The translations under genes and the position numbers were made by a program. The notes under the pieces were generated by a model. That model was given only the letters and a program-made list of their open reading frames with translations, had not been told where the DNA came from and did no database searches. A DNA stretch of 64,000 bases from a virus. Every line of letters begins with the position of its first letter. Position 1 is the stretch's first letter. The DNA lies in the IMG/VR virus record IMGVR_UViG_3300045988_154953; one strand, 5' to 3'. Below are positions 1,977-47,114 of this stretch, one piece after another.

Positions 1977-2282
1977 ATGATTAGTACAGTAGATACGACA
2001 TTAAGTGTGATCAATGGATATGCTTGTATAGTTCCTGTTCAATATCCAAATTGGTATGATATTCCTGAAATTGGATTTATCAATCATGGTGAATGGTCAG
2101 ATCCTTACATTGAGTACAAAGGTAAACAGATTAATTCACATATTATTGAAGATGCAATGTATGAAGAATATTGTGAAGAATGTGAGCCTGGTAAAGACAA
2201 CTTGGATGATTTTGCAATTTATATGAAAAACCATACCGAATATGTATACAATTTAATTGATGAAATAAACGTATGCATATAA
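1977..2282 (+). CDS. hypothetical protein
   Basis: tiled + strand ORF; stop TAA merges into 18-nt motif copy. Confidence 0.6.
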   Translation: MISTVDTTLSVINGYACIVPVQYPNWYDIPEIGFINHGEWSDPYIEYKGKQINSHIIEDAMYEEYCEECEPGKDNLDDFAIYMKNHTEYVYNLIDEINVCI

Positions 2283-2298
2283 ACTAATCAATATAATT
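2281..2298 (+). repeat. 18-nt boundary motif copy R1
   Basis: AAACTAATCAATATAATT; overlaps TAA of upstream gene; TTGAAT-17-TATTAT follows. Confidence 0.8.
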
Positions 2299-2340
2299 AT
2301 TTATATTGAATGAATATGATACATATGCTATTATAAGAGT

Positions 2341-2358
2341 AGACTAATCAATATAATT
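2341..2358 (+). repeat. 18-nt boundary motif copy R2
   Basis: AGACTAATCAATATAATT, 60 nt after R1. Confidence 0.8.
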
Positions 2359-2476
2359 ACGATAGGTAAAACAAATGAAATATTATGCGATTAGAGTTAC
2401 AAAAACTAAAGATATGTTTACAATATTTTTGAGTATATACAAAACCTATTAAAACAAATGCGAAAGGAAATACAAA

Positions 2477-2773
2477 ATGTTCAAAACAAGACGAATGCCT
2501 ATTTACAATTATCTGGATTTATCAACAGCTCATATTAAAGAGAAAACGTATAAATGGCTGGAAGAACAGATTGATAAGAAAACTCCATCAGCAATTGTAT
2601 ACAGAAAAGATGCTGGATTGTTTGTATGTGTTCCACCAGATATGACAGAGGAATGGAAAGTACCTGATGATCTTAGATACTGTTTATGGTGTGCATATAA
2701 ATATAACTGTAATTGGATTATCTTCGATGCAGATGCACCGGTGATTGATGACTTAGTTCAGTATGAATGGTAG
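2477..2773 (+). CDS. hypothetical protein
   Basis: tiled + strand ORF, AAGGAAA RBS; no family recognised. Confidence 0.6.
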   Translation: MFKTRRMPIYNYLDLSTAHIKEKTYKWLEEQIDKKTPSAIVYRKDAGLFVCVPPDMTEEWKVPDDLRYCLWCAYKYNCNWIIFDADAPVIDDLVQYEW

Positions 2774-2782
2774 GTGATATAA

Positions 2783-2980
2783 ATGTATACAGATACTACA
2801 AGGATTATTGAAAATGTTACAAATCAGTTTCCAGAAGCGAAAAATAAAAATTTGGAAGTAATGTATGATACTGATTCATTTGAATATCAAGTATCTAATC
2901 AAGAGTATTGTTATGCATTCTATGATGATGATCATGGTAATGGTAGAAGGCAAGTTGAACAGTTCATTAGAGAATATTGA
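2783..2980 (+). CDS. hypothetical protein
   Basis: tiled + strand ORF; no family recognised. Confidence 0.5.
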   Translation: MYTDTTRIIENVTNQFPEAKNKNLEVMYDTDSFEYQVSNQEYCYAFYDDDHGNGRRQVEQFIREY

Positions 2981-2994
2981 AAGGAATGATAATC

Positions 2995-3240
2995 ATGAAA
3001 AGAATATTTGTAAACAATGGTGATAGCATCGTATTAAACGCTGATCCAAATGAAAAAGGGTTAGAAGTTGTTAGTTTAGATTCAAACATTGGAATTAATT
3101 ATAGCTATATAATCCCAGAAGGCGAAATAGTTATGTTACTTAATTATTATAGGAATTGTAAGAGTGGATTAGAGAAATCTGATTATATCTCTAAAGGCAG
3201 AATTATTAATACTAATAGTTTAAAGCTTGAATATTTATAG
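2995..3240 (+). CDS. hypothetical protein
   Basis: ORF 2977..3240; start moved to ATG 2995 behind AAAGGA. Confidence 0.55.
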   Translation: MKRIFVNNGDSIVLNADPNEKGLEVVSLDSNIGINYSYIIPEGEIVMLLNYYRNCKSGLEKSDYISKGRIINTNSLKLEYL

Positions 3241-3283
3241 AAATTAATTTTTAACAGTAGTAAAAATGATTATGGAGGCGAAA

Positions 3284-31045: not shown

Positions 31046-31105
31046 AAAGGTGTTAAAAGGTATATAAAGGTGTGCAAAGGTATCAAAAGTGATAAGGTGA
31101 TAACA

Positions 31106-31304: not shown

Positions 31305-31322
31305 AAACTAATCAATTTAATT
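31305..31322 (+). repeat. 18-nt boundary motif copy R3
   Basis: AAACTAATCAATTTAATT. Confidence 0.8.
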
Positions 31323-31401: not shown

Positions 31402-32460
31402 ATGAATGGGTTTGATTATTATTATGGAATGGAAGCCGAACAGTTCTCATTCTATCGTGTTCCACGCCTGCTGATAAAGGATGAAAGATTTAAGAAATTG
31501 TCCAGTGACGCAAAATTATTGTATGGACTTATGCTTGATCGTATGTCACTGTCTATAAAAAATGAATGGTTTGACGATGAAAATCGTGCATATATCATTT
31601 ACACCATAGATAGCATAATGGAGGATTTGGGATGCGCTAAAGAAAAGGCTATAAAGGTATTGGCAGAGCTTGATTCTGTAAAAGGAATTGGTCTGGTAGA
31701 AAAGGTTCGCAGAGGACTTGGAAAACCGGATATAATTTATGTGAAAAATTTTGCTTCTATTACTGAGCAGATGGACGAAAAAGAGCCAGCAAATGCTGAT
31801 AAAATCACAGAAGTCAGAAAATCGAACTTCAAGAAGTCAGAAAATCGAACTTCAAGAAGTCAGAAAATCGAACTTCTGGAAGTTCGGAAATCAAACCTCA
31901 AGAAGTCGGAGAATCGAACTTCTGGAAGTTCGGAAATCAAACCTCAAGAAGTCGGAGAATCGAACCCTAATTATACTAACTATAATCAGACTTATATGAA
32001 TCAGACTAATTATAACCAGACTGAGTTGAGTTATTCCAATCCTATCAATCAATCTAGAATAACATGGCATAAAGAGGATGCGATAGATACGATGGATAAT
32101 GCACAGTCCTACATAAATTTGATTAAAGACAATATCGACTATGACCATCATATGAAATATGATGATTATGGAAAATGTGAGCTTTATGAGGAATTGTTTC
32201 AGGTGATCTGTGAGGTTGTATGTGTAAATCATAAAACCGTGAGAATTGCAGGGGAAGATTATCCGTATGAGCTTGTGAAGTCAAGATTTTTGAAACTGAA
32301 CGGTAGTCATTTGGAGTATGTGATTGATCGCATGAAGAATGTGAATGCAAAGATAAAAAACATAAAAGCATATATGATCACAGCGTTATATAATGCTCCA
32401 AATACAATGAATCATTTTTATCAGCAGGAAGTGCGGTGCGATTTATATGGAATTCCATAA
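31402..32460 (+). CDS. RepA_N-type replication initiator
   Basis: N-terminal FYRVPRLLIKDERFKKLSSDAKLLYGLMLDRMSLS...IIYTIDSIMEDLGC winged-helix pattern of Firmicute RepA_N initiators; central 23-bp iteron array inside the ORF. Confidence 0.65.
   Translation: MNGFDYYYGMEAEQFSFYRVPRLLIKDERFKKLSSDAKLLYGLMLDRMSLSIKNEWFDDENRAYIIYTIDSIMEDLGCAKEKAIKVLAELDSVKGIGLVEKVRRGLGKPDIIYVKNFASITEQMDEKEPANADKITEVRKSNFKKSENRTSRSQKIELLEVRKSNLKKSENRTSGSSEIKPQEVGESNPNYTNYNQTYMNQTNYNQTELSYSNPINQSRITWHKEDAIDTMDNAQSYINLIKDNIDYDHHMKYDDYGKCELYEELFQVICEVVCVNHKTVRIAGEDYPYELVKSRFLKLNGSHLEYVIDRMKNVNAKIKNIKAYMITALYNAPNTMNHFYQQEVRCDLYGIP
31809..31969 (+). repeat. 7 x 23-bp tandem direct repeats (putative iterons/origin) inside rep
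   Basis: units AGAAGTCAGAAAATCGAACTTCA (x3) then alternating GGAAGTTCGGAAATCAAACCTCA / AGAAGTCGGAGAATCGAACTTCT. A 23-nt period makes successive units read in all three frames. Confidence 0.85.
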
Positions 32461-32476
32461 ACTAATCAATATAATT
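32459..32476 (+). repeat. 18-nt boundary motif copy R4
   Basis: AAACTAATCAATATAATT; overlaps the rep TAA. Confidence 0.8.
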
Positions 32477-32507: not shown

Positions 32508-33506
32508 ATGAATGGAATTACAGAATATGAGATGACGTTTCAACGAAAAATAAATAAAATTCTTGAAGAAAACAAAAATTTATATGGATTTTATGGGTTT
32601 ATGACGAATATTTCAATTTCTTCTGCATATAACTATTTAAGACATATCGAAAGATTCTTGTTGTATCTTGATGGAAAACCTTTAAACGAATTGACGATTG
32701 ATGATTTTACCGGATACATGATTAAAATCCAGAGGAAAGATAACGGAGAGAAAGTTACATCATCGTATAAAATTACTGTGTATTCAGCCTTAAAAAAATA
32801 CGGAAAATACTTAGTAGGATCACATCAGTTAGAAAGTAATCCTATGGACTTTGTAGATCGACCAAAGGCAACAGAGAGTCAAGAAACTATTTCAAAACGA
32901 GAAAATGGATATTTGACAACAGGTGAAATTAAGTCTTATATATCCGCAGTTAAACATGGGAGTGGCAATGATAAAAGTATAGCAATGCAAATGGAATGGA
33001 AAGAAAGAGATATGGCGATTATAATGATTTTCTTAAACACTGGTATAAGATGTTCAGCCCTAATGAAGCTTGATGTGAAAGATATAAATTTTCAACAGAA
33101 GACATTATCTGTTATTGACAAAGAGTCAAAATATAACGTATATAATTTATCTGATGAGATATTAAATATCATTAAAGATTGGCTAGATAAGAGGCGTTTA
33201 TTACTTTTTGGCACAGAAAATGATGCTTTGTTTATTTCTAATCGAAGAACACGTATGACACAAAACGCAATTTCTTATGTTGTCCAAAAATATGCATCCG
33301 ACATAAAAGGCAAACATATAACACCGCATAAATTAAGAGCAACATATGGTACACAGTTATACAACGCCACAAAAGATATTTATTTTGTGCAGCAGTGCTT
33401 AAAACATAATAGTCCAAAAACATCCGAATTATACATCAGAGGAAATGATAATAGCAATCAAACTGGCAAAGCTTCTGACATCATGAAGTATATAACACTA
33501 AACTAA
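32508..33506 (+). CDS. tyrosine recombinase/integrase
   Basis: SAM-like N-domain; catalytic candidates NTGIRCSAL (R), HKLRATYGT (H-x-x-R), LKHNSPKTSELYIR (H...Y). Confidence 0.75.
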   Translation: MNGITEYEMTFQRKINKILEENKNLYGFYGFMTNISISSAYNYLRHIERFLLYLDGKPLNELTIDDFTGYMIKIQRKDNGEKVTSSYKITVYSALKKYGKYLVGSHQLESNPMDFVDRPKATESQETISKRENGYLTTGEIKSYISAVKHGSGNDKSIAMQMEWKERDMAIIMIFLNTGIRCSALMKLDVKDINFQQKTLSVIDKESKYNVYNLSDEILNIIKDWLDKRRLLLFGTENDALFISNRRTRMTQNAISYVVQKYASDIKGKHITPHKLRATYGTQLYNATKDIYFVQQCLKHNSPKTSELYIRGNDNSNQTGKASDIMKYITLN

Positions 33507-33517
33507 TCATTTTAACA
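33500..33517 (+). repeat. 18-nt boundary motif copy R5
   Basis: AAACTAATCATTTTAACA; contains the integrase TAA; TTGATA-17-TATTAT follows. Confidence 0.7.
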
Positions 33518-33604
33518 TTTGAAACTTGATAAAATCCCAAATATAGTGTATTATAAAGGTAAATATCTATATAATTCATTGTTTGGATTTTTAAGGAGGG
33601 AAAT

Positions 33605-34876
33605 ATGTTAAAAGATAGGAGGACACTTGAATTATATTTAGAAAATTGTAATTTTGATATAGCCATAGATAATGAGAAATGTAAAGAAATATACGATTAT
33701 GCAAATCTAATTTATAATATTCCAAAGTCTTTAGTTTTAGATTATATGACTCAAAGAAAGTCTTTGGCTGAAGCATCTGAATTTGAATTGTTTATATTAT
33801 TAGATTCAATTCTCAAATTCACAAAAAATGAAAGTAAACTTACGACATATTTTACAGAAAAGGAGTTAAATTTTTATTCCACAGAAAAATTTCAAAACGA
33901 AAATATAAAATTTCCATTGGAATTTAAAGCTATACAAATAACAAATGATCAATGGATCGGAAAAATTAATGTTAAAACTTTAATGAAATTTCGTAAAGCG
34001 CAGCTTATCAATTACGATGCAAATACTCAACGTGTAATGACGAGGATTGTTCGTAATGAAAAAGTTGAATGGAAGATAACAACCAATAAAAAATCTGTAA
34101 ACGAAATTGCTAGAGAATATGAGAACAATACGTTTATTCCGAATACCATTACATTAAATATTCCTACAGATAGTGACGCAGACTTTTATTATGACGAAGA
34201 AACATGTACACTTATTATAAATAAACTTGAGCACTTTAATATAACAGATGGGTATCACAGATACTTAGCAGAAGCAGAAACGAGTGATAAAATTCCTGAT
34301 TTCGATTATCCGATGGAATTAAGAATCATTAATTTTACGGACGATAAAGCTAAAAGGTTTATATCCCAGGAAGAACATAAAAACCATATGAAAAAACTAG
34401 ATAGCAAATCAATGGATATGAATAATATGGCGAATATTACCGTAGAGAGATTGAATGACAATGTGAATTTTAATTTAAAAGGATTGATATCTCGAAATAG
34501 AGGAATCGTAAATTTTCCAATTCTTGCTGATTTAGTTGAGTATTTTTATTTTAAAAATACCCCTAAAAGTAAATCCAGGATAACAATGATACAAACAGTT
34601 AAGGAATTGACAGATAAAATCAATGAATTTACAGAATGTTATCCTGAATATCTTGAAAAAGAAATAGATTATAGTACAATATTATCTATGATGTTTTGTT
34701 TCAATTACTACAAAGATACAAACAAACCAAATATAAATGAAATAATCATTCGGCTTGCAGATAGAATAAGAAATACAAAAAATCCAACACTTCGTGATAA
34801 AAGATCTACTCCTAAAAAGATGAGGTTAGTTGAACAGGAATTATTAGAAGTTTTAAATGAGATGGAGGGAAAATAA
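33605..34876 (+). CDS. DGQHR/DndB-like ParB-Srx fold protein
   Basis: 423 aa; HFNITDGYHRYLAEAE core motif with the upstream Q/R-rich strand pattern typical of DndB-like proteins. Confidence 0.45.
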   Translation: MLKDRRTLELYLENCNFDIAIDNEKCKEIYDYANLIYNIPKSLVLDYMTQRKSLAEASEFELFILLDSILKFTKNESKLTTYFTEKELNFYSTEKFQNENIKFPLEFKAIQITNDQWIGKINVKTLMKFRKAQLINYDANTQRVMTRIVRNEKVEWKITTNKKSVNEIAREYENNTFIPNTITLNIPTDSDADFYYDEETCTLIINKLEHFNITDGYHRYLAEAETSDKIPDFDYPMELRIINFTDDKAKRFISQEEHKNHMKKLDSKSMDMNNMANITVERLNDNVNFNLKGLISRNRGIVNFPILADLVEYFYFKNTPKSKSRITMIQTVKELTDKINEFTECYPEYLEKEIDYSTILSMMFCFNYYKDTNKPNINEIIIRLADRIRNTKNPTLRDKRSTPKKMRLVEQELLEVLNEMEGK

Positions 34877-34877
34877 T

Positions 34878-35636
34878 ATGCATGATACAAGTTGTTTTTA
34901 TAATGAGGAGTTAAAAAATAGATTTATTAATGATAAATCAGAAGAAATTATAAGCGTAACATCCATGTATTATATGTTCAAGAAAGTTGCAAAGATAGAA
35001 ACGGAATTGAATAAAGATTTATGTGATTGGAATTATTACGAAATAATGGAGTATTATAAATTACTTAATTGTTCTTCAATACAACCATTAATCATTATAA
35101 ATGCAATATTTTCACAGTATACACAATTTTGTTTGATGAACAATATTGTAAAAGACAGCCAGAATCATTATACAGAAGTTAAAAGAGAAATATTAATCAA
35201 ATGTATCAATAAATTAATATTGGATAAAAAATGCGTGGATCGAGAACAAGTTTTAACATGGATAGATGAATTGCCGAATCCGAAAGATCAATTTATTATG
35301 CTTGGTGTATTCGAATTTGGAAAGAGAAGAAATTACTATGATATTGCAAATGCTAAACCTGAAGATGTAGATTTACGAAATTGTACATTGAAACTGGAAA
35401 ATAGAACAGTAAAAATTTCAGAAAAATTAGTAGAGATAATAAAAGATTGCATGAGTACAAATTACTACTTTTCAGTTTCTGGTTCATTCTTAAAGAGAAT
35501 GCCGTTAATTTACGATGGACACATTGTTAAAAAGTATCCAAACGAGGAAATTAAATCAACCGATTATGCAAAGGAAGAAACATTTATCAAAGTCTTACAA
35601 GAAGTTTTAAATATCTTGGTGTTGAAAAATGGATGA
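34878..35636 (+). CDS. integrase-like (SAM-like N-domain) protein without a clear catalytic set
   Basis: ORF 34857..35636; ATG 34878 follows GGAGGGA. The layout resembles the recombinase core-binding domain, but no R-H-R-Y set is seen. Confidence 0.4.
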   Translation: MHDTSCFYNEELKNRFINDKSEEIISVTSMYYMFKKVAKIETELNKDLCDWNYYEIMEYYKLLNCSSIQPLIIINAIFSQYTQFCLMNNIVKDSQNHYTEVKREILIKCINKLILDKKCVDREQVLTWIDELPNPKDQFIMLGVFEFGKRRNYYDIANAKPEDVDLRNCTLKLENRTVKISEKLVEIIKDCMSTNYYFSVSGSFLKRMPLIYDGHIVKKYPNEEIKSTDYAKEETFIKVLQEVLNILVLKNG

Positions 35637-35821
35637 ACGGAGTGGCATTGGTAAATTCTGGCAAAATATATTCGATCAATCAAAAAGCGAAAGAATTAAA
35701 TATTTCTGGTAGAGATGTAATAAATAGCGATCATATAAAAGAAATAAATAATCAATATGATTCTAATATTGAAATAAATGCGCGTACATTTATTTTACAA
35801 TATGAAGATTACCTGGCCTAA
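35633..35821 (+). CDS. small hypothetical protein
   Basis: ATGA overlap with the upstream gene. Confidence 0.45.
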   Translation: MNGVALVNSGKIYSINQKAKELNISGRDVINSDHIKEINNQYDSNIEINARTFILQYEDYLA

Positions 35822-35846
35822 CCGGCTAGGTAATTTTATAAAATTT

Positions 35847-35864
35847 AAACTAATCAGTTTAATT
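35847..35864 (+). repeat. 18-nt boundary motif copy R6
   Basis: AAACTAATCAGTTTAATT. Confidence 0.75.
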
Positions 35865-36019
35865 ATTCTATATTAATAGGAGGTGAGGATTTATGATTGC
35901 GATATGTACAAAATTTCAAAAAGAACACTTGTTCTCAGACGAATAGTATGATATACTATTACCAGAACATATGTACACCATTTAATTAAATGTAATTTTA
36001 AACAGGAGGAAACGCGATA

Positions 36020-36355
36020 ATGAAGGAACACACTTTTTCAAATGTAAATAATAGAGTTGATAGATCTGCAATTATAGAAAAGTTAGAATATATATTGAAT
36101 GCTGCAAAAAATGCTGCTGATACATTTATGATATATATTTCTAACGATAACTTTGAATGCAGAAATAATGTTGATGCAAATGATTTTGAATTAGACGAAA
36201 AAGATTTTCATTTATCATATGGATCTTATGAGTTACATATTAATTTAAACGAAACTGATATAAAATATTTAGCAGCGGAGGAAAATAATTATGAAGGAGA
36301 ATTATTTATTTTTTCGTTAGTTAAATATAATACAGAAATCAGCATGGTCTTCTAA
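36020..36355 (+). CDS. hypothetical protein
   Basis: tiled + strand ORF behind CAGGAGGA. Confidence 0.6.
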   Translation: MKEHTFSNVNNRVDRSAIIEKLEYILNAAKNAADTFMIYISNDNFECRNNVDANDFELDEKDFHLSYGSYELHINLNETDIKYLAAEENNYEGELFIFSLVKYNTEISMVF

Positions 36356-36380: not shown

Positions 36381-36398
36381 AGACTAATCAATATAATA
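36381..36398 (+). repeat. 18-nt boundary motif copy R7
   Basis: AGACTAATCAATATAATA. Confidence 0.7.
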
Positions 36399-36843: not shown

Positions 36844-36922
36844 AAGAAGGCGAGAACACTCGCCACTTTAGTGGTGAGATGAATCGCCGACAAAGAGAGA
36901 ATATACATATGAGGTGATAATC

Positions 36923-36991
36923 ATGAAAGTAACGCATGGTCATGGATATGTGTATTCAATTCAATATCATATTGTTTGGTGTGTTAAAGCT
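36923..36991 (+). pseudogene. tnpA: tnpA (IS200 Y1 transposase) N-terminal stub
   Basis: MKVTHGHGYVYSIQYHIVWCVK, then loss of similarity; runs on into tnpB. Confidence 0.5.
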
Positions 36992-37027
36992 ATATTAAAA
37001 ATCAAAAACGAAAGTGAGGTGAAGACG

Positions 37028-38128
37028 GTGGAAAAGGCATATAAATATAGAATATATCCAAATAAAAAGCAAAAAGAACTTATTCATAAAACTTTTGGAT
37101 GTACTAGATTCGTATATAATACATATCTTGCAAAAAGAATTGAGAAATATGAAAAAGATAAAATCACATTTACTTATATACAATGTGCAAATGATATGAA
37201 AAATCTTAAAACTGAATTAGGATGACTTAAAGAAGTTGATTCTACTGCTCTTCAATCATCCCTTAAAGATTTAGATGTTGCTTATCAAAAATTTTTTAAA
37301 GAGCATGCTGGTTATCCAAAGTTTAAATCAAAGAAAACACATAAATATTCTTACAAGTCAAAATGTACTAATGAAAATATCCAGTATTGTGACAAGCATA
37401 TAAAATTACCTAAGCTTGGAATGGTAAAAACAAGAAACAAATTAATACCACAAGGAAGAATACTTAATGCAACTGTGTCACAAGAATCTAGTGGTAAATA
37501 TTATGTATCACTCTGCTGTACTGATGTAGATATAAAACCATTGGAAAAGACTGGAAATTCAATTGGAATTGATTTAGGAATTAAAGAATTTTGTATTACA
37601 TCAGATGGTGAAATGATAGAAAATCCAAAATATCTCAAGAAGTCTTTAGACAAACTTGCAAAGTTACAAAGAGAGTTGTCTCGAAAATCAAAAGGTGGTT
37701 CAAATTGTAATAAAGCAAGAATTAAGGTTGCAAGACAACACGAGAAAATTACAAATCAGAGAAAAGATTTTTTGCAGAAATTATCTACTAAAATTATTAA
37801 ATACAACGACATTATTTGTATTGAAGATTTACAAGTTAAAAACATGATTAAAAATCATAAACTTGCAAGAAGTATTGCAGATGTATCATGGTCTGAGTTC
37901 GTTAGACAGTTAGAGTACAAAGCTAATTGGTATGGTAAACAGATTGTAAAAGTAGATAAGTTCTTTGCAAGCTCACAGACTTGCAGTGTTTGTGGGTATG
38001 TTAATAAAGAAACAAAGAATCTTGGTATTCGTGAATGGGATTGCCCGCAATGCGGGACACATCATGATCGAGATATAAATGCTGCTATAAATATCTTAAA
38101 TGAAGGATTAAGAGTTTTGGCAGCATAA
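37028..38128 (+). pseudogene. tnpB: tnpB with a single in-frame TGA
   Basis: VEKAYKYRIYPNKKQ start; [42 protein letters not shown] 37223-37225 sits where homologs have Trp (ELG*LKEVDS); ORFs 36914..37225 and 37421..38128 share one frame. Confidence 0.7.
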
Positions 38129-38394: not shown

Positions 38395-40368
38395 TTGAGT
38401 AAATTAGATGAAATAAAAACACTTATTGCAAAATTAAACGAAGCCGCTTACTATTACTATCAAAAAGATGACCCAATTATAAGTGATAAACGGTATGATG
38501 AGTGGTATGATCAACTTGTGCAGCTTGAAAAAGAAACAGGAATTATATTAGCCAGTTCACCAACTCAAACTGTGCAGGGTTTCTTATTGAAGGATTTGAA
38601 AAAAGTTAAGCATATGCGACCTATGCTTTCTGCAAACAAGTCTAAAGATGTAAATGATATTAAAAAGTTCCTTAGTAATAAAAGGGGAATTGTTAGTTGG
38701 AAGATGGATGGTCTGACAATTGTATTAACGTATAAAGCAGGAAAGTTTATACAGGCTGTTACCAGAGGTACTGGAGAGATTGGTGAGGATGTAACCCATA
38801 CAATGAGAATGTGCGAAAATATTCCTTTGACTATCCCATATCCAATTGATATGACTGTACGTGGTGAATGTGTTATCTCATGGAACGAGTTTACAAGAAT
38901 AAATGATAAACTTATTGATAAATATAAACATCCTCGCAATTTAGCTGCAGGTACTGTTAGACAGCTCGATTCTAACATTGTTAAAGATAGAAAGATTATA
39001 TTTAAAGCTTTCGAGCTTGTGCAGGATGATAATTATAATCATCCAAAAGTCGCTGAGAAAATATATGATATTGGTGAATCATTTAATTTCTTATCTGAAT
39101 GTGGCTTTGATGTAGTTGAACACAATATTGTCACAAGAGATACTGTAGACACAATGATCGAAAAGTTTGACCCAGATCAATATGCATATCCTGTGGATGG
39201 ATTGATTTTTACATATGATGACTACGTATACGGAAAGCAACTTGGAACAACCTCTAAGTTTCCTCTGAATATGATAGCTCTTAAGTGGGAAGACGAGTTG
39301 TACGAAACTGTTTTAAGAGATATTGAATGGAATACAACTCGTACAGGTGTTATTAATCCTGTAGCCATATTTGATGAGATTGACTTGGATGGTGCTTTAA
39401 CAACTAGAGCAACGCTTCATAATGTATCTATCATTGAGTCGTTAAAATTAGGGATTGGTGATATTATTCAAGTGTACCGTTCAAATAAGGTTATCCCTAA
39501 AGTACATGACAACTTAACCAGAAGTAATACATATATTATTCCAAGCAGATGTCCTTGTTGTGGCGGTCACGCAATTGTAAAGAATGAAAATAATTCTAAG
39601 ATTTTATATTGTATAAATCCAGATTGTTCAGCAAAATTTACTTCTAAACTCGAAAATTTTGTAAGCAGAAATGGAATGAATATTGTTGGATTAAGCGGAC
39701 AAACGATTGAACAAATAGTTAATAAGGGATACGTGAATACATTTACAGATATTTATCACTTGTTAGAATATAAAAAAGAATTATCTACAATTCCTAAGAT
39801 GGGTGCTAAGTCAGTATCAAAATTATTAAATGCAATTGAAGATAGCAGAAAAACAGATTTAACTCATTTGATTACAGCTTTATCTATACCACTTATTGGA
39901 AAATCAACAGCGAAAGATATTGCAAAATATTGTCATGATGATGTTGATAAATTTGTATTTATTATGAATAACACATCTCTTGAATTAGCTGCAATTGATG
40001 GGGTTGGTGTGGCCGCTACAAAATCATTAGATGATTGGTGGAGTGAAAACGCAGATTTATTTTATGAATTATTGAAAGAATTAGATGTTGAGAAACCAGA
40101 AGATGCTTCTTTATCGACATCGGATGGAATTGATTTAACAGGTAAGACATTTGTTATTACTGGATCTCTAAATCATTTTATTAATAGAGATGCTTTAAAA
40201 GATAAGTTAGAAAACATGGGTGCGAAAGTTTCTGGTTCTGTAAGTAAAAATACATTTGCACTTATTTGTAATGACAAGGATAGTAATAGCGGCAAATCTA
40301 AGAAAGCAAAAGACATTGGAGTAAATGTTTGGAGCGAAGAAGATTTATTGATATTTATTGGAGAATAG
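38395..40368 (+). CDS. ligA: NAD-dependent DNA ligase
   Basis: 657 aa; adenylation motif WKMDGLTIV (KxDG), C4 Zn finger CPCCG...CINPDC, HhH region, C-terminal BRCT (GKTFVITGSL); TTG start behind TAGGAGGA. Confidence 0.9.
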   Translation: MSKLDEIKTLIAKLNEAAYYYYQKDDPIISDKRYDEWYDQLVQLEKETGIILASSPTQTVQGFLLKDLKKVKHMRPMLSANKSKDVNDIKKFLSNKRGIVSWKMDGLTIVLTYKAGKFIQAVTRGTGEIGEDVTHTMRMCENIPLTIPYPIDMTVRGECVISWNEFTRINDKLIDKYKHPRNLAAGTVRQLDSNIVKDRKIIFKAFELVQDDNYNHPKVAEKIYDIGESFNFLSECGFDVVEHNIVTRDTVDTMIEKFDPDQYAYPVDGLIFTYDDYVYGKQLGTTSKFPLNMIALKWEDELYETVLRDIEWNTTRTGVINPVAIFDEIDLDGALTTRATLHNVSIIESLKLGIGDIIQVYRSNKVIPKVHDNLTRSNTYIIPSRCPCCGGHAIVKNENNSKILYCINPDCSAKFTSKLENFVSRNGMNIVGLSGQTIEQIVNKGYVNTFTDIYHLLEYKKELSTIPKMGAKSVSKLLNAIEDSRKTDLTHLITALSIPLIGKSTAKDIAKYCHDDVDKFVFIMNNTSLELAAIDGVGVAATKSLDDWWSENADLFYELLKELDVEKPEDASLSTSDGIDLTGKTFVITGSLNHFINRDALKDKLENMGAKVSGSVSKNTFALICNDKDSNSGKSKKAKDIGVNVWSEEDLLIFIGE

Positions 40369-40373
40369 GTGGA

Positions 40374-40967
40374 ATGACGGAAGAAACAATATTAGAATAT
40401 AAAATTAGTGATCATGCTCAGAAAAGATATGCTGAACGTATCATTGGAAAAGATAATCAGGTTGAAATAAATCGTTTTGTAACTGAAAATAAAGACAAAA
40501 TTAAAACTGATATTAATAAAATGATTCAGTATGGAGAAATGATTTACGCCGGTATTCAATCTCAGAAAGATAACAAAGGAAAAGTAATAAATGTTTTCCT
40601 AAAGGATTGTTGGGTTGTTTTAGTGAATATACAAACACATATTGTTGTGACACTTTACAAGATTGATCTTGGATGTGGAGATGAATTCAATCAGATATAT
40701 GTTTCGAAAATGTTAAACAAGTTGAATGAGAAAAAGAAATTATTAGCGGAAACAAAATTTAATGTCGCTAAAGAATCTGAAGAATATAAAAATTTAATTT
40801 CTGATGCACAATCCCAAATCAACGAATATAAGAGTATGGTTAAAAATCTCGAATCAATGTGTATTGGATATCAAACTATCATTGATAATAACACTGTTAA
40901 AATAAAACAGGCAGATAGAGAAGTTGCTGACATTGTAAATACACTTATTAACAAAAAAGAATTTTAA
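40374..40967 (+). CDS. hypothetical coiled-coil protein
   Basis: ORF 40329..40967; ATG 40374 follows TAGGTGGA. Confidence 0.55.
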   Translation: MTEETILEYKISDHAQKRYAERIIGKDNQVEINRFVTENKDKIKTDINKMIQYGEMIYAGIQSQKDNKGKVINVFLKDCWVVLVNIQTHIVVTLYKIDLGCGDEFNQIYVSKMLNKLNEKKKLLAETKFNVAKESEEYKNLISDAQSQINEYKSMVKNLESMCIGYQTIIDNNTVKIKQADREVADIVNTLINKKEF

Positions 40968-40983
40968 ACTAGTCAATTTAATT
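40966..40983 (+). repeat. 18-nt boundary motif copy R8
   Basis: AAACTAGTCAATTTAATT; overlaps the upstream TAA; TTGACA at 40991 follows. Confidence 0.75.
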
Positions 40984-41020
40984 ATTAATATTGACAGATA
41001 TATATAATTGTGATATCTTT

Positions 41021-41038
41021 AAACTATTCAATATAATT
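41021..41038 (+). repeat. 18-nt boundary motif copy R9 (degenerate)
   Basis: AAACTATTCAATATAATT. Confidence 0.6.
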
Positions 41039-42227: not shown

Positions 42228-42245
42228 AAACTAATCAATTTAATT
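42228..42245 (+). repeat. 18-nt boundary motif copy R10
   Basis: AAACTAATCAATTTAATT; lies directly before the RBS of the ATPase gene. Confidence 0.8.
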
Positions 42246-42266
42246 TTACAGTTTGAGGAAATATAA

Positions 42267-44867
42267 ATGAATGGATTAAACAAAAATGAGGTTCTTGAAA
42301 GTAGAAGAACTTATGGAAGTAATAAGCTTCCAGAACCTAAAATGAAGAAATGGTATGATTTTGCTATACAAGCATTAACAGAAAAAATTACATTAATTTT
42401 AATCGCAATTGCAGTTTTACAGTTAGTTCTTGGAATAATTGGAGTTTCGGAAATTTCAACTCCAATTATGATTATTATCGTACTTGCAATCGTAACAATA
42501 CTTGGTATAAAAACAAATCTTGGAGTACAAAGATCAGCTGCCGAATTACGAGCGAGAACAGCAACCAGATATTGTGATGTAATTCGTAATGGAGAACTTC
42601 AAACAATAAATAAAGATGAACTAGTAGTTGGTGATCTTGTATGTGTGAGAATGGGACAAGAAATATTTGCAGATGGTTATTTGATTGAAGGTAAAATTTC
42701 AGTAAATAACGCTGCTATTAATGGTGAAACAAAAGAATGTAAGAAAACACCAATTGAAGGATACAAACATATAAAAACAACATCTACAGATGCTTATACA
42801 AATCAAAACTGTTTATTCGCAGGAACTACAGTTATGGCCGGTGAAGGTAAAATGATTGTTACAGATGTTGGTGTTAATACTATAAATGGTGATACACTTG
42901 TTAAAATGCAGACTCTTGAAGCACCTAAAACAGCTCTTGATATTGCACTTGATAATTTATGTGATTTTATCTCAAAATGGGGTACAATTGCAGCATTTGT
43001 AGCATTTGTTATTCTCATGATAACTAGTGTCATGCAAGTTGGTTTTGTGGAATATTTTAGTGGTGATATTCTTGATATTATTCATAAAATTGCATTGAAT
43101 TTTTCTGTAGCAGTAACAATTATTGTAGCTGCTGTACCAGAGGGTCTTCCAATGATTGTCAAGCTTGTTACAAAACAGAATGTTAATACAATGGAAAAAT
43201 TTAATATTCTTGCAAAAAATCCTGGAAAGATTCCAGAACTTGCTTATGTTGATATCATTTGCACAGATAAAACTGGTACATTAACAACAGGAATTATGAC
43301 ACCAAAGAAAATCATTGATGGATATGGAAATGAAGTTGATCAGAAATCAATTCTTTGGAGTAATATTAAAGATAATATTTGTTTAAATAATAGTGCTGCG
43401 TTTGATTCAGATGATAATATTACAGGCGGGAATTCAATTGACAGAGCACTTCTTGGACTGGTTTCTTCGGAACAATATAATGAAATCATTAACAGATATT
43501 CTGTTAAATTAAAACAGGTATTTAGTAGTGAAAATAAGTATTCTGCATTTACATGTTCTGATGGAGTTACATATTATAAAGGTGCTCCAGAAAAACTTAT
43601 TGACTCATGTACATCAGTTTTAAATTCTGGAGTAGAAATATTTTCTGATAACAACAAAAAGAAATTATATGAACATATTAAGGAAATGACAGAAAAGTCA
43701 ATGAGATGTATTGCTTTAACAATGAGTAATGAAGATTTGGTTGAAAATCAGCTTCCAAATAATATGACGTTTCTTGGTGTTATTGGAGTAGTAGATCCTG
43801 TAAGAGATGAAGTACCTGATGCTGTTAAAACAGCTCATGAAGCGGGTATACAGGTAATTGAAATTACAGGTGATTGTCTTGAAACAGCGAAAGCAGTTGC
43901 TGCGGAATGTGGAATTTACAAAAACGGTGATCTTGCCATTACAAATGATGAGTTTGAAAAAATGTCTGATGATGAAGTTAAATTAATCATTCCTAGATTG
44001 AGAGTTATTTCAAGATGTTCACCAAATACAAAATTAAGACTTGTAACTATTGCTCAAGAAGTAGGAAAATCAGTTGCCATGACAGGTGATGGAGTTAATG
44101 ATTCACCAGCATTAAAGAAAGCAGACGTTGGTTTTGGAATGCAAAGCGGATCTGATGTAGCAAAAGAAGCATCAGACATTATATTGACAGATGATAATTT
44201 TGCAAGTGTTGTAAAAGCAGTCGAACTTGGCAGAACATTCATGCACAATATTATGATGTTCCTTGAGTTTCAGCTCCCTATTAATATTTCACTTTTAATT
44301 TTGAGCGTAATTTATCCTATCATTGCGACAGGTGCATTACTTGCTTCTGTTCAAATTCTGATAATTAATATTATCATGGATTCTTTGAATTCATTATCAT
44401 TTGGTGGTGAGCCACCGAAAGAAGAATATATGCTAGAGAAACCTATTAAAAAAGGATCTGGACTTTTTATTAGAGGAGCAAAGAAACGAATTGCTGTTAG
44501 TACGATCACGTTTATTGTTTTATATGCGATTATTACATTTACTCCAATTAAGAATATGTTTTCGTCAGAAACAGAAGCTATGACCGCAAGATTTGCATTA
44601 CTTTGTTTTATGGCTGTGTTCAATGGGTTTAATATCCGTACAGAACATATGAATTTATTTAAAGGAATCGGAAAGAATAAGTTGTTTTTATATATTGCAA
44701 TTGGAATTTTTGTAATGACGATTGTTTTATGTAATGTTGTAGGATCATTCATTAAAGTGACTCAGTTGGATTCAATACATTGGTTAACAATTATTGCATT
44801 ATCATTTATTGTTATTCCAGTTGATCTTATCAGAAAGGTAATCGACCGTAAAACTAAGGAGGCATAA
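42267..44867 (+). CDS. P-type cation-transporting ATPase (type II, Ca2+-ATPase-like)
   Basis: ICTDKTGTLTTG phosphorylation site, ITGD, MTGDGVNDSPALKKADVG hinge, N- and C-terminal TM bundles. Confidence 0.85.
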   Translation: MNGLNKNEVLESRRTYGSNKLPEPKMKKWYDFAIQALTEKITLILIAIAVLQLVLGIIGVSEISTPIMIIIVLAIVTILGIKTNLGVQRSAAELRARTATRYCDVIRNGELQTINKDELVVGDLVCVRMGQEIFADGYLIEGKISVNNAAINGETKECKKTPIEGYKHIKTTSTDAYTNQNCLFAGTTVMAGEGKMIVTDVGVNTINGDTLVKMQTLEAPKTALDIALDNLCDFISKWGTIAAFVAFVILMITSVMQVGFVEYFSGDILDIIHKIALNFSVAVTIIVAAVPEGLPMIVKLVTKQNVNTMEKFNILAKNPGKIPELAYVDIICTDKTGTLTTGIMTPKKIIDGYGNEVDQKSILWSNIKDNICLNNSAAFDSDDNITGGNSIDRALLGLVSSEQYNEIINRYSVKLKQVFSSENKYSAFTCSDGVTYYKGAPEKLIDSCTSVLNSGVEIFSDNNKKKLYEHIKEMTEKSMRCIALTMSNEDLVENQLPNNMTFLGVIGVVDPVRDEVPDAVKTAHEAGIQVIEITGDCLETAKAVAAECGIYKNGDLAITNDEFEKMSDDEVKLIIPRLRVISRCSPNTKLRLVTIAQEVGKSVAMTGDGVNDSPALKKADVGFGMQSGSDVAKEASDIILTDDNFASVVKAVELGRTFMHNIMMFLEFQLPINISLLILSVIYPIIATGALLASVQILIINIIMDSLNSLSFGGEPPKEEYMLEKPIKKGSGLFIRGAKKRIAVSTITFIVLYAIITFTPIKNMFSSETEAMTARFALLCFMAVFNGFNIRTEHMNLFKGIGKNKLFLYIAIGIFVMTIVLCNVVGSFIKVTQLDSIHWLTIIALSFIVIPVDLIRKVIDRKTKEA

Positions 44868-44868
44868 A

Positions 44869-45645
44869 ATGGGATTATTTGGTAAATTATTCAAAGGGAA
44901 CAAAGTTGATACGAAAGAAAATGAAGCTATACTAAAAAATAGCACAGTTAGTCAAAACGTGATTGACATGTCTAAGTCATCAGAAAACTTAAATAAAGTT
45001 CTGATCAATATGTCTAAAACCGGAAAAATTGATATGACAAAACATGTTGCACGAGTTGCACTTGCTATGGATTATTCTGGCAGTATGTATAATTTGTATG
45101 ACAATGGATCTGTACAGAATGTTATCACAAGACTTCTTCCTATCGCATTGAAATTCGATGATAATGGTGAACTTGAAGCTTGGTTGTTTTCTAATGGTAA
45201 AGAAAGACTTGCTGCAGTAACAACTGAAAATTATAAAAACTATGTAAAAAAAGTAATGATGAAGTCAGGAATGAGAATGGGCGGTACAAATTATGCGCCT
45301 GTATTGGAAGATATGGTGATGTATTATAAAGATATTGAACCAAGCACTGTTCCAGCATTTATCATTTTTATTACAGACGGAGAAAATTTCGACACCGATG
45401 AAACGAATAGAATTATAAAAGAGTTATCAAACTATAATATTTTTATTCAATTTATTGGTATTGGTAATGAAGATTTTAAATACCTTAAATCCTTAGATAA
45501 CATGAAAGGTAGAAAACATGATAATACAGGGTTTACAGCTGTAGAGGATATGAACAAAATGACAGACGAAGAGTTGTACACAGAAATACTTAGACAGTAT
45601 AGTGCTTGGTATGAACGTAGTAAAGGAGTAAATAAATATGAGTAA
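44869..45645 (+). CDS. vWA domain protein of the TerF-C-terminal/TerY type
   Basis: MIDAS LAMDYSGSM, FITDGE; directly upstream of the TerD gene. Confidence 0.6.
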   Translation: MGLFGKLFKGNKVDTKENEAILKNSTVSQNVIDMSKSSENLNKVLINMSKTGKIDMTKHVARVALAMDYSGSMYNLYDNGSVQNVITRLLPIALKFDDNGELEAWLFSNGKERLAAVTTENYKNYVKKVMMKSGMRMGGTNYAPVLEDMVMYYKDIEPSTVPAFIIFITDGENFDTDETNRIIKELSNYNIFIQFIGIGNEDFKYLKSLDNMKGRKHDNTGFTAVEDMNKMTDEELYTEILRQYSAWYERSKGVNKYE

Positions 45646-46276
45646 TGTAATTAATATGAGTAAGAATCAGAAAATTAATATGACTAAAGATAATGGTGAG
45701 GCAATTAAGAATTTCTTCATTGGTGTAAATTGGGATCAAAATAGATATGCTGGAGAAGCAGATATTGATTTTGATATCAATGGTTTCTTAACAAATTCTG
45801 ACAGAAAAGTAATATACCCAAAAGATATTGTTAATTATAATACATATAATAGCAACGATTATCCATGGGTTGAATATTCCGGTGATAATTTAACAGGTGA
45901 TAATTCTATAGGTATTACATTTGATGGAAAGCATTATGATGAGTATTTTATTGTACACGCTGATTTATTTCCAAATGATAGAACAGATTTTACTATTTGC
46001 TTAACAATTTATAGAGCGGTTCAAAGATTGCAGAATTTTGGTATGATAAGCAATGCTTCAATGATGATTTGTGATTATGATGATCCAAGTGATAAAAAAT
46101 GGGAGTTTAACCTTTCTGAAGATGAAAAATTTGAAAATTTAAATGCTGTAGAAATAGGAAGACTTTATCGTTACGGTAACGGATTTAAATTTCAAGCACT
46201 TGGATCAGGATATGTCGGTGGAATGACAGAGCTGTTCAAAAACTTTGGATTAGATATTGATGAAGGTAGGGATTGA
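45638..46276 (+). CDS. terD: TerD-family (Ca-binding stress) protein
   Basis: INMSKNQKINMTKD...FIGVNWD...ADIDFDINGFL follows the TerD beta-sandwich pattern; overlaps the upstream gene by 8 nt. Confidence 0.6.
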   Translation: MSNVINMSKNQKINMTKDNGEAIKNFFIGVNWDQNRYAGEADIDFDINGFLTNSDRKVIYPKDIVNYNTYNSNDYPWVEYSGDNLTGDNSIGITFDGKHYDEYFIVHADLFPNDRTDFTICLTIYRAVQRLQNFGMISNASMMICDYDDPSDKKWEFNLSEDEKFENLNAVEIGRLYRYGNGFKFQALGSGYVGGMTELFKNFGLDIDEGRD

Positions 46277-46279
46277 TAG

Positions 46280-47011
46280 GTGGCTGCAATTATAATTGTT
46301 ATTACCATTATTATAGTTGGTGTATTATTTTTCACAAAGACAGGCAAAAGATTGAGACTTAGAGCGTCAGGCACAGCAGAAGAAATGATAACAAAAGATG
46401 CTGCAACACCAAATGGAGCTAAAGCACACTATAATGCCGTTATTTCAAAAAAAGAAGAAGAATATCAGAACGTAAACAAATTTTATACTGAAACGCTTGG
46501 AAACATTAAATTCTATGAAACACAATTGCGTTCATTGCAAAAAGAAAATATGCAGTTAAACCTTAATATTAATAATTGTGTTGAGAAAAACGATGATAAT
46601 GGTGCTAAAGTATATTTAGGTCGTCAACAAGAAGTAAATGATAAGATTGATATTATCAAAAATACTTTAGTTGAATTACGAAGAAATTCTGAGCTTCAAA
46701 AGGAAAATTTAGATACATTATATGAAAATATTAATAATTTAAAGTCCGAAAAGGAAACTTCAGTTTTGACTCTTGAAGCAGCTGAGATAACAAAATCATT
46801 AAAATCCGCTCCTGGTGTTTATTCGCAAGAAGAAGATAAAATGCTTGAAAAAGTACGCGATGGAGTAAAGAAAGCTAAGAAAGAAGCAGATGGCGTTAGT
46901 ATCGCTTATGAAAATTCAATGGATGTTCAACAGAAACGTCTTGATAAGAAAATGAAAGATGACGAAGTTAATAGAAAGCTTAAACAACTAAAAGATGCTA
47001 AGAAAAAATAA
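46280..47011 (+). CDS. membrane-anchored PspA/IM30-like coiled-coil protein
   Basis: N-terminal TM helix, then long heptad-rich region with a VEKNDDNGAKVYLGRQQE segment like PspA 'AL..G.EDLAR.AL'; GTG start. Confidence 0.45.
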   Translation: MAAIIIVITIIIVGVLFFTKTGKRLRLRASGTAEEMITKDAATPNGAKAHYNAVISKKEEEYQNVNKFYTETLGNIKFYETQLRSLQKENMQLNLNINNCVEKNDDNGAKVYLGRQQEVNDKIDIIKNTLVELRRNSELQKENLDTLYENINNLKSEKETSVLTLEAAEITKSLKSAPGVYSQEEDKMLEKVRDGVKKAKKEADGVSIAYENSMDVQQKRLDKKMKDDEVNRKLKQLKDAKKK

Positions 47012-47027
47012 ACTAATCAATTTAACA
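47010..47027 (+). repeat. 18-nt boundary motif copy R11
   Basis: AAACTAATCAATTTAACA; overlaps the upstream TAA. Confidence 0.75.
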
Positions 47028-47034
47028 AAAAATA

Positions 47035-47066
47035 TTGACAGAAAATAATATATATGATATTATAAT
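47035..47066 (+). promoter_or_regulatory. strong sigmaA-type promoter of the RNA array
   Basis: TTGACA (47035-47040), 17 nt, TATTAT (47058-47063); an overlapping TATAAT at 47061-47066. Confidence 0.65.
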
Positions 47067-47096
47067 CATGTCAGCAAGGATAGTTTTTGTAAAATT

Positions 47097-47114
47097 AAAC
47101 TAATCAATATAATT
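47097..47114 (+). repeat. 18-nt boundary motif copy R12
   Basis: AAACTAATCAATATAATT; followed by the hairpin CAAATGG/CCATTTG. Confidence 0.8.

Follow-up and report, generated by a model that had tools for sequence, protein, structure and literature searches.

What is the role of an 18-nucleotide (nt) word that recurs between the genes of a large phage-like element, always on one strand and often over a stop codon? The question is raised by a stretch of 64,000 nt from IMG/VR record IMGVR_UViG_3300045988_154953 (called the window below), which covers positions 135,728-199,727 of a 215,456-bp metagenomic contig (ENA ERZ27262592 k119_156924). The element appears to be a phage or phage-plasmid of ~215 kb from gut Clostridia; we read ~74 of the 215 kb, namely the 64-kb window and 10 kb further on the same contig. 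A preliminary description of the window had listed 12 copies of the word, ARACTAATCAATWTAATT, as the boundaries of gene cassettes, a term that is an interpretation and not an observation. We propose that the copies are probably operator boxes of the element's own master repressor, a protein of the MrpR/SroF (YopR) type, on the grounds of sequence and of analogy with SPbeta-like Bacillus phages.

Distribution and layout of the motif

All 12 copies were recovered at the coordinates given in the preliminary description, on the + strand and between genes, at a frequency far above chance. There were six exact matches to ARACTAATCAATWTAATT in the window, compared to 0 expected (100 shuffles), and 15 matches at ≤3 mismatches, compared to 2.66 ± 1.66 by shuffling (largest value in any shuffle, 7); 14 of these 15 were on the + strand. 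Six of the listed copies are exact, four have one mismatch (35847, 36381, 40966, and 41021), one has two (47010), and one has three (33500). The additional weak matches at 35745 and 48355 are probably not members of the set. An exact 13th copy lies on the same contig ~8.5 kb beyond the window end (L052:18912), in the order promoter, hairpin, box, ribosome-binding site (RBS). All 13 copies in the 74 kb are on the + strand and are either intergenic or overlap stop codons.

The box carries ~23 bits of information from position -1 to about +18/20, starting at the T before the motif, and its edges are sharp, with flanking information of ~0. It is asymmetric, with 8 of 18 positions self-complementary, the level expected of AT-rich DNA. 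Essentially all genes in the window, including every one of appreciable size, are on the + strand, and the 12 copies are thus co-oriented with transcription. The copies are as follows.

2281..2298, +, box of the upstream type; overlaps the stop codon of the open reading frame (ORF) at 1977-2282; TTGAAT at 2306-2311 follows 7 nt on, with a 17-nt spacer and TATTAT at 2329-2334
2341..2358, +, box of the downstream type; 6 nt past the -10 of the 2306 promoter, at ~+1; precedes a long run of small genes from 2477
31305..31322, +, box upstream of the rep promoter; TTGAAA at 31340 (17 nt on), 16-nt spacer, TATAAT ending at 31367
32459..32476, +, box between rep and the tyrosine recombinase gene; overlaps the rep stop; without a promoter; RBS and ATG 31 nt on
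33500..33517, +, degenerate box with 3 mismatches; contains the recombinase stop; then TTGATA at 33526 (8 nt on), 17-nt spacer, TATTAT
35847..35864, +, box after the terminator of the mrpR-like gene; followed in relatives by a TTGACA promoter
36381..36398, +, box after a gene for a protein of 111 amino acids (aa); TTGATT next
40966..40983, +, box of the upstream type; overlaps the stop of the ORF at 40329-40967; TTGACA at 40991, 7 nt on, 17-nt spacer, TATCTT
41021..41038, +, box of the downstream type; 1 nt past the -10 of the 40991 promoter; ATG of a 129-aa gene 26 nt on
42228..42245, +, box between a 255-aa gene and a cargo operon (P-type ATPase, TerF-vWA, TerD, PspA-like); without a promoter; runs into an RBS
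47010..47027, +, box of the upstream type; overlaps the stop of the ORF at 46280-47011; TTGACA at 47035, 7 nt on, 17-nt spacer, TATTAT
47097..47114, +, box of the downstream type; 33 nt past the -10 of the 47035 promoter; first tRNA-like gene 31 nt on

The overlaps with stop codons were as first described (at 2280, 32458, 40965, and 47009, with an internal stop at 33504): the TAA of the ORFs ending at 2282, 32460, 40967, and 47011 consists of the T before the motif and the motif's first two A's, and the stop of the ORF ending at 33506 falls within copy 33500. The -35-like TTGA hexamers reported 7 to 17 nt past some copies were also found (TTGAAT at 2306, TTGACA at 40991 and 47035, TTGAAA at 31340, and TTGATA at 33526), as was the direct run of copies 32459 and 42228 into an RBS.

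Three layouts can be distinguished. In the first, the box stands upstream of a sigma-A-type -35/-10 pair (2281, 31305, 33500, 36381, 40966, and 47010), with a gap of 7 nt (once 17, once 8). The second has the box between the promoter and the RBS or first tRNA (2341, 41021, and 47097), and the third has it between two genes of one operon, with no promoter (32459 and 42228). Three promoters are bracketed by box pairs (2281/2341, 40966/41021, and 47010/47097), which gives box-promoter-box units. The top promoter matches between 31 and 48 kb are those at 31340 and 47035 (11 of 12 positions), and both have an upstream box. The distance from the ACT of the box to the -35 hexamer (TTGACA type) is 23 to 27 nt in the window and five relatives, downstream-type boxes begin 1 to 37 nt after the -10 in the window and relatives, and a start codon or tRNA lies 21 to 31 nt beyond the box in 7 of the 13 copies.

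A repressor gene of the MrpR/SroF family

Near the middle of the box cluster lies a set of genes that resembles the repressor module of SPbeta-like phages.

32508..33506, +, tyrosine recombinase gene, 332 aa (Phage_integrase, 1e-30); sits where the SPbeta module has yopP/sroD
33605..34876, +, YopQ homologue, 423 aa (BLASTP against SPbeta YopQ, 3e-18; phrog_5732, 3.6e-67; weak DndB-like match)
34857..35821, +, gene of the MrpR/SroF (YopR) repressor family (Pfam MrpR_N_CB, 2.5e-13; phrog_5830, 2.8e-42)
35810..35831, +, terminator-like hairpin and T-run directly 3' of the mrpR-like gene, read from the sequence; conserved in relatives
35923..35976, +, putative SOS-regulated promoter: LexA box over the -35, TGnTATACT at 35949-35957, and a second near-box
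36020..36355, +, gene for an acidic protein of 111 aa; preceded by the LexA boxes and next after the repressor gene

The element thus encodes a member of the MrpR repressor family, which has a recombinase fold with CB and CAT domains, by Pfam (PF22822/PF22823), PDB, and PHROG matches. Intact orthologs of the window protein also match MrpR_C_cat. A PDB profile search built from five orthologs returned only MrpR/SroF chains at E<0.1, both of the following over their full length: 9rd5 (1.1e-17) and 8a0a, annotated as “SPbeta master regulator MrpR” (1.3e-6). In tblastn searches, the protein matched YopR homologues of phi3T and SPbeta-like phages (3e-8) and also that of Clostridium phage c-st.

The gene order recombinase, YopQ homologue, MrpR-like protein is that of a yopP-yopQ-yopR (sroD-E-F)-like module. 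The recombinase itself has weak similarity to YopP (0.064), and counterparts of yopM, yopN, and yopO were not among the genes identified in the window module. The MrpR-like protein lacks a Phage_integrase match at E ≤ 0.01, compared to 1e-30 for the neighboring 332-aa recombinase. Both catalytic-arginine positions are occupied by other residues (G and N/E/Y) in an alignment with YopR, which is unreliable at 22% identity. The preliminary description had connected the motif with the adjacent tyrosine recombinase. It had the right neighborhood and the wrong mechanism, in that the relevant neighbor is a recombinase-fold protein of a noncatalytic repressor family (PMC10516654; bioRxiv 10.1101/2025.11.27.690993). 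Box 33500 is presumed to be an autoregulatory site, since it precedes the promoter from which the mrpR-like gene and its yopQ-like neighbor would be transcribed.

Downstream of the repressor gene, the LexA (Cheo) box GAACACTTGTTC at 35923-35934 is the only GAACN4GTTC in the 64 kb and overlaps the -35 of the TGnTATACT promoter; the second near-box, GAACATATGTAC, at 35965-35976, precedes the 111-aa acidic gene. This arrangement is conserved at the same place in five relatives described below (L046, L047, L048, L049, and L051). The 111-aa gene is the fastest evolving of the module (25 to 49% identity). Its position, LexA control, and pair-specific divergence make its product a candidate antirepressor, by analogy with Sar of phage phi3T. 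An AlphaFold model made from the single sequence with no alignment had a predicted local distance difference test score (pLDDT) of 53, too low for a fold search.

Genome-specific boxes at conserved positions

Relatives of the element were found via the ligase, a family-specific 255-aa protein, and the MrpR alignment in IMG/VR. They are a 188-kb contig (L046), contigs of 73 kb (L048), 88 kb (L051), and 161 kb (L056), and two loci from one 288-kb contig (L049 and L050). A further relative (L047) lies within a 931-kb contig of the Coprococcus catus assembly GCA_027676955.1 (JAQENQ010000001.1, 420905-428875), a context that points to C. catus or related Lachnospiraceae as the host, with either an integrated state or a chimeric assembly. 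A near-identical 207-kb contig (L034) also exists. Where the loci cover it, the common order is rep, recombinase, YopQ-like gene, MrpR-like gene, small acidic gene, a variable part, ligase, 196-aa gene, ~125-aa gene, ~250-aa gene, cargo slot, tRNA array, TROVE-like gene, and Dcm; this backbone order is identical in L034, L046 to L051, and L056.

The window motif is absent from all relatives searched; each relative carries a motif of its own at these positions. Together, the window and six relatives display five box variants.

Window: ARACTAATCAATWTAATT
L048: RACTTMGTAATTWTRTAAA
L049: ARACTRWCCAWRTTTATTAWA
L047 and L051: RAACTTRATTATTAAATAC
L046 and L056: RRACTAATCATAAATAWATA-like

Ten orthologous box sites are kept in most genomes (L046, L047/L051, L048, L049, and L056).

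Before the rep promoter (31305): L048:440, L049:645, L051:647
At the rep stop (32459): L048:1508, L049:1730, L051:1721
At the recombinase stop (33500): L048:2592, L049:2784
After the MrpR terminator (35847): L048:5032, L049:5130, L051:5131
After the small acidic gene (36381): L049:5650, L051:5662, L047:1956
Before the promoter of the ~125-aa gene (40966): L048:9510, L049:9519, L051:9537, L047:5831, L046:12223
After the promoter of the ~125-aa gene (41021): L048:9568, L049:9579, L051:9598, L047:5892, L046:12292
After the ~250-aa gene (42228): L048:10779, L049:10756
Before the tRNA promoter (47010): L048:15061, L049:15117, L051:10735, L047:7039
After the tRNA promoter (47097): L048:15153, L049:15201, L051:10816, L047:7120

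Box identity is 0.78 to 0.90 within a genome and 0.39 to 0.71 between genomes, except for L047 and L051, which have one box type in common and MrpR proteins that are 91% identical. Palindromy is confined to the L047/L051 variant and is not conserved. The L051 variant resembles the T7 epsilon translational enhancer, which we take to be a coincidence.

Similarity between boxes goes with similarity between MrpR proteins and not with the backbone. The Spearman coefficient with box similarity was 0.78 for MrpR, 0.46 for the 129-aa protein, 0.28 for the 255-aa protein, and 0.22 for the ligase, over 15 pairs of six genomes that are not independent, so that the covariation is descriptive only. L046 has the most distant backbone (ligase, 67%) and yet has ACTAATCA in common with the window and the second-closest MrpR (53%). 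The 129-aa and 255-aa proteins, which are fast evolving and encoded behind a box-flanked promoter, were considered as the specificity factor and rejected, since their divergence follows the backbone and not the box type. Boxes that keep their positions and change in concert imply that the element encodes a specificity factor.

Comparison with characterized repressor systems

MrpR has a tyrosine-recombinase fold without the catalytic residues or recombinase activity (PMC10516654, Kohm et al. 2023). Chromatin affinity purification sequencing (ChAP-seq) placed its peaks on SPBRE boxes in ten promoter regions, and electrophoretic mobility shift assays (EMSA) and reporters showed binding to and repression of SPBRE promoters (PMC10516654). 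The phi3T homologue SroF clamps as a monomer on a 26-bp asymmetric AT-rich box (Phi3TRE), of which it reads 24 bp; boxes and repressors are phage specific, and a LexA-controlled antirepressor, Sar, is encoded one ORF downstream of sroF (bioRxiv 10.1101/2025.11.27.690993).

From the SPbeta genome (NC_001884), we re-extracted 11 strong SPBRE copies, all co-oriented with the downstream gene. At aimR, the copy is followed by TTGACT 7 nt on; at yonX, the order is copy, TTGATT-17-TATAAT, copy, RBS; at yopV, it is promoter, copy, RBS; and at yopM, yorE, and yonP, it is copy, RBS. The window resembles SPbeta in the family of its repressor (the same in Pfam, PDB, and PHROG), in the adjoining yopQ homologue and recombinase gene, in its approximately dozen asymmetric, AT-rich, intergenic, co-oriented boxes, and in all three layouts (box/-35, box-promoter-box-RBS, and box-RBS). 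It differs in the box, which is about CAAATACAAAWAATATGTATATA in SPbeta and ARACTAATCAATWTAATT here, in the host (Clostridia rather than Bacillus), and in the element, which is ~215 kb, carries a RepA_N replicon, and has almost no other genes in common with SPbeta. The likeness to phi3T lies in the best PDB match of the repressor (9rd5, from the 9rd5/9rgl structures), in boxes and repressors that are particular to each phage, and in the LexA box before a small gene directly downstream of the repressor; the conserved core, in contrast, is 19 to 20 nt here and 26 bp in phi3T.

Among Clostridia elements, c-st (NC_007581), a 186-kb plasmid prophage of Clostridium botulinum, carries YopQ, YopR, a small ORF, an NAD-dependent ligase, and, later, a DNA methyltransferase (Dcm), as does the window, whereas protein similarity is low (26% over half of MrpR). 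To our knowledge, no repressor box has been described for c-st. In the part that we inspected (L058, 14074-38568), AATTAAATTAAA-like words are repeated in intergenic regions around the YopQ and YopR homologues, one of them directly before a TTGACA; this repeat may be the c-st repressor box and is too AT rich to call.

A further parallel is offered by the stoperators of mycobacteriophage L5 and Cluster A phages, reportedly described by Brown et al. (1997, EMBO J) and by Mavrich and Hatfull (2019, mBio). These are said to be asymmetric, short, numerous in each genome, uniformly oriented to transcription, and situated in short intergenic gaps, often over stop or start codons, with a sequence that coevolves with the repressor and defines immunity. 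The L5 repressor gp71, on the other hand, is reportedly a helix-turn-helix (HTH) protein and not a recombinase-fold one, and its sites are 13 bp; no gp71 homologue was seen in the element, where no search aimed at one was made. The analogy is one of mechanism and not of membership.

A model for repression and release

We postulate that the repressor would clamp as a monomer around one long, asymmetric, AT-rich box; a monomeric clamp of this kind would lead to boxes that are nonpalindromic and all point along transcription. While the element is quiescent, as a lysogen or plasmid, bound repressor would shut the box promoters and block read-through. This control would extend to rep, the repressor operon, the SOS-controlled 111-aa gene, the 129/255-aa pair with the cargo operon, the tRNA array, and, through the promoter at 2.3 kb, a long block of small genes. 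The small LexA-controlled protein whose gene directly follows that of the repressor would bring about release. Homology and layout suggest repressor-box binding, repression by that binding, and the antirepressor role of the 111-aa protein.

Several points weigh against the repressor reading. Identity to SPbeta MrpR is just 22 to 24%, and the box is unrelated to SPBRE. Several SPBRE copies lie inside the promoter spacer (TAGACA-17-TATAAT), whereas those of the window lie beside the core promoter. No similarity in sequence to Sar or YopT was detected for the 111-aa protein. The mrpR-like gene is disrupted in two independent genomes: in the window, the loss of one A from an A-run near 35570 splits it into ORFs 34857-35636 and 35633-35821, and the L048 gene (3997-4962) has a TAA at the equivalent of residue 253 with an ATG directly after. 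A C-terminal ORF of about 62 to 68 aa is left in both. Errors of assembly, repressor-defective (virulent) variants present in metagenomes, or a split that is tolerated or functional may account for these breaks; the near-identical contig has an intact copy of 314 aa (L034:13477-14421). Besides being descriptive, the covariation cannot tell MrpR apart from the YopQ-like and recombinase genes, which are inherited with it, and it therefore supports a module rather than a single protein. Of an arbitrium (aimR-aimP-aimX) system, which may not be a defining feature of the repressor-box pair, no AimR-like match was seen among the window ORFs in general Pfam scans, which covered 64 of the 215 kb and would miss small peptides. 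Lastly, the box distribution is known for ~74 of 215 kb, and regulators elsewhere on the element are possible.

The characterization of recombinase-fold repressors with a long monomer box is recent (2021 to 2025) and confined to SPbeta-like Bacillus phages. A recurrence of this logic in large elements of gut Lachnospiraceae, with the repressor family, the YopQ neighbor, the oriented boxes, and the SOS-box gene, would indicate that it is not a Bacillus peculiarity. What is new here is the different host group and the much larger, rep-carrying element; the regulatory system itself is already known. On a near-identical backbone, the five box variants and the five repressor variants that go with them may offer a natural specificity series for how this fold reads DNA. 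For annotation, a conserved, oriented, intergenic word near an “integrase” without an integrase Pfam match would suggest a regulon and not att sites or cassettes.

We speculate, as a tentative extension that may well prove wrong, that in this family of Clostridial elements (~160 to 290 kb) the repressor does more than switch between lysis and lysogeny: as a global silencer with two monomer boxes around a promoter, it would also control the rep replicon, the tRNA array, and interchangeable cargo. Box, repressor, and SOS antirepressor would then form an immunity cassette that diversifies while the rest of the backbone stays 85 to 95% identical, with the boxes serving secondarily as direct repeats for cargo gain or loss.

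Alternative explanations

The preliminary description had listed an operator for a phage regulator among the candidate roles of the motif, with the double-HTH protein at 20009 as the example. The operator part is retained here; the choice of protein found no support, and the MrpR/SroF-type repressor at 34857-35821 is a better candidate. It is nevertheless conceivable, and in our judgment unlikely, that the boxes are operators of another regulator of the element (the HTH protein at 20009-20569, the YopQ-like ParB/DndB-fold protein, or a protein encoded outside the window) and that the MrpR-like protein has another function. That the boxes diverge in concert requires an element-encoded specificity factor without naming which, the YopQ-like and recombinase genes covary with the boxes as MrpR does, and the MrpR gene is broken in the window. 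For the protein at 20009, there are HTH domains and a match to a PHROG of phage transcriptional regulators; its orthologs from relatives with other box types were not obtained, so that covariation neither supports nor excludes it. The balance is tipped by the box binder in both characterized systems, which is the MrpR/SroF homologue, by the asymmetry of the 18- to 26-bp boxes, which fits a monomeric clamp and not a dimeric HTH protein, and by the 129-aa and 255-aa proteins, which do not track box type.

We regard as very unlikely an action of the motif in RNA, as a processing, stability, or translation signal at 5' leaders or cistron 3' ends that is read by an RNA-binding protein or a small RNA of the element. 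All copies are on the transcribed strand, many abut stop codons, and the 21- to 31-nt distance to a start codon or tRNA in 7 of 13 copies would suit such a signal, but the 23- to 27-nt spacing of upstream boxes from the -35 in the window and five relatives is meaningful on DNA and not on RNA. No sequence complementary to the motif was found in the window on either strand, and SPBRE boxes of the same layouts are bound as DNA.

Recombination, either at tyrosine recombinase sites with excisable cassettes or between direct repeats for module gain and loss, is very unlikely as the main function of the motif, even with two recombinase-fold genes in the middle of the box cluster and a 4.8-kb cargo operon exactly between boxes 42228 and 47010, a slot that has one box and no cargo in L047/L051 and other cargo in L048/L049. 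The integron-like array of excisable cassettes that had been suggested is argued against by the gene order between boxes, which is the same in all relatives sampled, by the boxes themselves, which are asymmetric, lack the inverted arms of tyrosine-recombinase core sites, and are not attC-type palindromes, and by the exchange junctions of rep (31414 and 32451), which lie inside the gene and not at boxes. Recombination among twelve direct sites would also remove rep and the repressor, boxes do not bound the other indels that separate the window from L034 (TnpB insertions and a swap at 27 to 30 kb), and SPbeta MrpR has no recombinase activity. Variation of cassette content between motif copies, for which the preliminary description had proposed a check across relatives, is box bounded only at the cargo slot; the backbone order is identical.

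Also very unlikely is a promoter or UP-like element recognized by the RNA polymerase of the host or by a sigma factor or RNA polymerase of the phage, including the motif as a promoter in its own right. The TATAAT or TTTAAT in the window variant is not kept in the relatives' variants, which argues against a -10 function. Copies stand in the UP-element zone (about -60 to -43) of the region's strongest promoters, but also on both sides of ordinary promoters, with a variable distance of 1 to 37 nt for the downstream ones, and inside operons. Nor would a sequence that the host reads show concerted change among phages of related hosts, and no sigma factor or RNA polymerase gene was detected in scans of the window, a part of the element.

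The rep gene and the cargo slot

The rep gene (31402-32460) bears on the idea of box-bounded exchange. Its interior (31414-32451) is 90% identical in DNA to rep of Clostridial integrative and conjugative elements (ICEs), in which the context is ParA-ParB-RepA-DUF6050 beside lysS and the loci are without the box, whereas the first and last codons of the window gene are of the type of the element's own relatives. The window rep is therefore a mosaic gene, produced by recent intragenic allele replacement from an ICE. RepA homologues had led to such ICEs and not to relatives of the element. Capture of rep as a cassette bounded by boxes was rejected, with termini of the family type and both junctions intragenic. 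Inside rep, at 31809-31965, are 23-bp tandem repeats (6.8 copies) that are unrelated to the box and are as expected for a RepA_N origin. A role of the box as a RepA_N iteron was likewise rejected: rep has its own 23-bp repeats, and the 90%-identical ICE rep loci are without the box, yet the boxes flanking rep are of the window type. RepA as the box-binding protein was rejected for similar reasons, namely the ICE-derived interior and the presence of its own iterons. Upstream of rep, at 31035-31089, is a 10-bp periodic AAAAGGTATT array of 5.5 copies, with a similar AAAGGT-type array at the same place in L049; the AAAAGGTATT array may be a partition or initiator binding site.

The cargo slot lies between the ~250-aa gene and the tRNA array and is the only slot that is box bounded. 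In the window (42267-47011, 4.8 kb), it holds a P-type cation ATPase, TerF-vWA, TerD, and a PspA-like gene; in L048 (10798-15053) and L049 (10792-15027), it holds ABC transporter, PspA-like, and NMT1/OmpA genes; and in L047 and L051, it is empty, with a single box. Box-to-box recombination may occasionally gain or lose cargo here as a side effect. The suggestion that the copies are conserved linkers for modular exchange therefore survives as a minor possibility at this slot (42228-47010) and fails at the other loci. The slot can be compared to the “mobile regulatory cassettes” of T4-type phages, the PeSLs reportedly described by Arbiol et al. (2010, Genome Biol Evol), in which repeated promoter-associated sequences are said to bound variable genes and recombination gains or loses modules. 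PeSLs, in contrast, are reportedly units of a host promoter and a stem-loop that are homogenized by recombination, whereas here only the box is conserved between copies and the backbone order is stable.

Other features of the element and searches for relatives

The window has 31% G+C and a strong GC skew. Besides many small ORFs, its genes include a RepA_N initiator, the tyrosine recombinase, DndB-like and MrpR-like genes, two TnpB elements, an NAD-dependent ligase, the P-type ATPase with TerF-vWA, TerD, and PspA-like genes, the tRNA array, a TROVE/vWA RNA-binding protein, a Dcm methylase, an RNA ligase, and a sliding clamp. SPbeta YorF and YoqJ/YpsA have homologues in the 10 kb beyond the window. 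When 112 small ORFs were scanned as concatemers against Pfam, few families came up, with no sigma factor, RNA polymerase, or clear repressor among them; the SG linkers of the concatemers gave spurious Serglycin matches.

Several other searches gave little. An IMG/VR scan for the exact motif gave 32 single matches in unrelated contigs and no relatives. Megablast of the region against GenBank phages found only a 5-kb rep fragment and a transposase and no close relative. Related-locus searches in IMG/VR returned nothing with the ligase and one distant match with the DUF2828 protein, and a search of representative GTDB genomes with the MrpR alignment gave no match.

Two insertions carrying TnpB (IS605 family) lie at 29502-30596 and 36914-38128, neither of which is in the near-identical L034. 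The second is split or degenerate and interrupts a DUF6275 gene. Conserved GCCACTTTAGTGGTG-type RNA ends occur near TnpB insertions, at about 36860 and 38200.

The tRNA array of the window (47146-48992) has unusual members. ARAGORN predicted an 87-nt tRNA with an undetermined anticodon at 47146-47232, and Rfam added a 115-nt tRNA at 48878-48992, possibly intron containing, and a tRNA at 48388-48456 that ARAGORN missed. After the tRNAs of L046 (16050-18860), there are at least 6 copies of a CTTCCTTCTA-containing repeat in noncoding DNA, ~85 to 100 nt apart, which suggests an array of small structured RNAs or repeats.

In the small-gene part of the window, an ORF at 18048-18263 resembles a HicA toxin. 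Upstream of a 45-aa XRE-type HTH fragment at 21659-21796 is a perfect TTGACA-17-TATAAT promoter without a box (21075).

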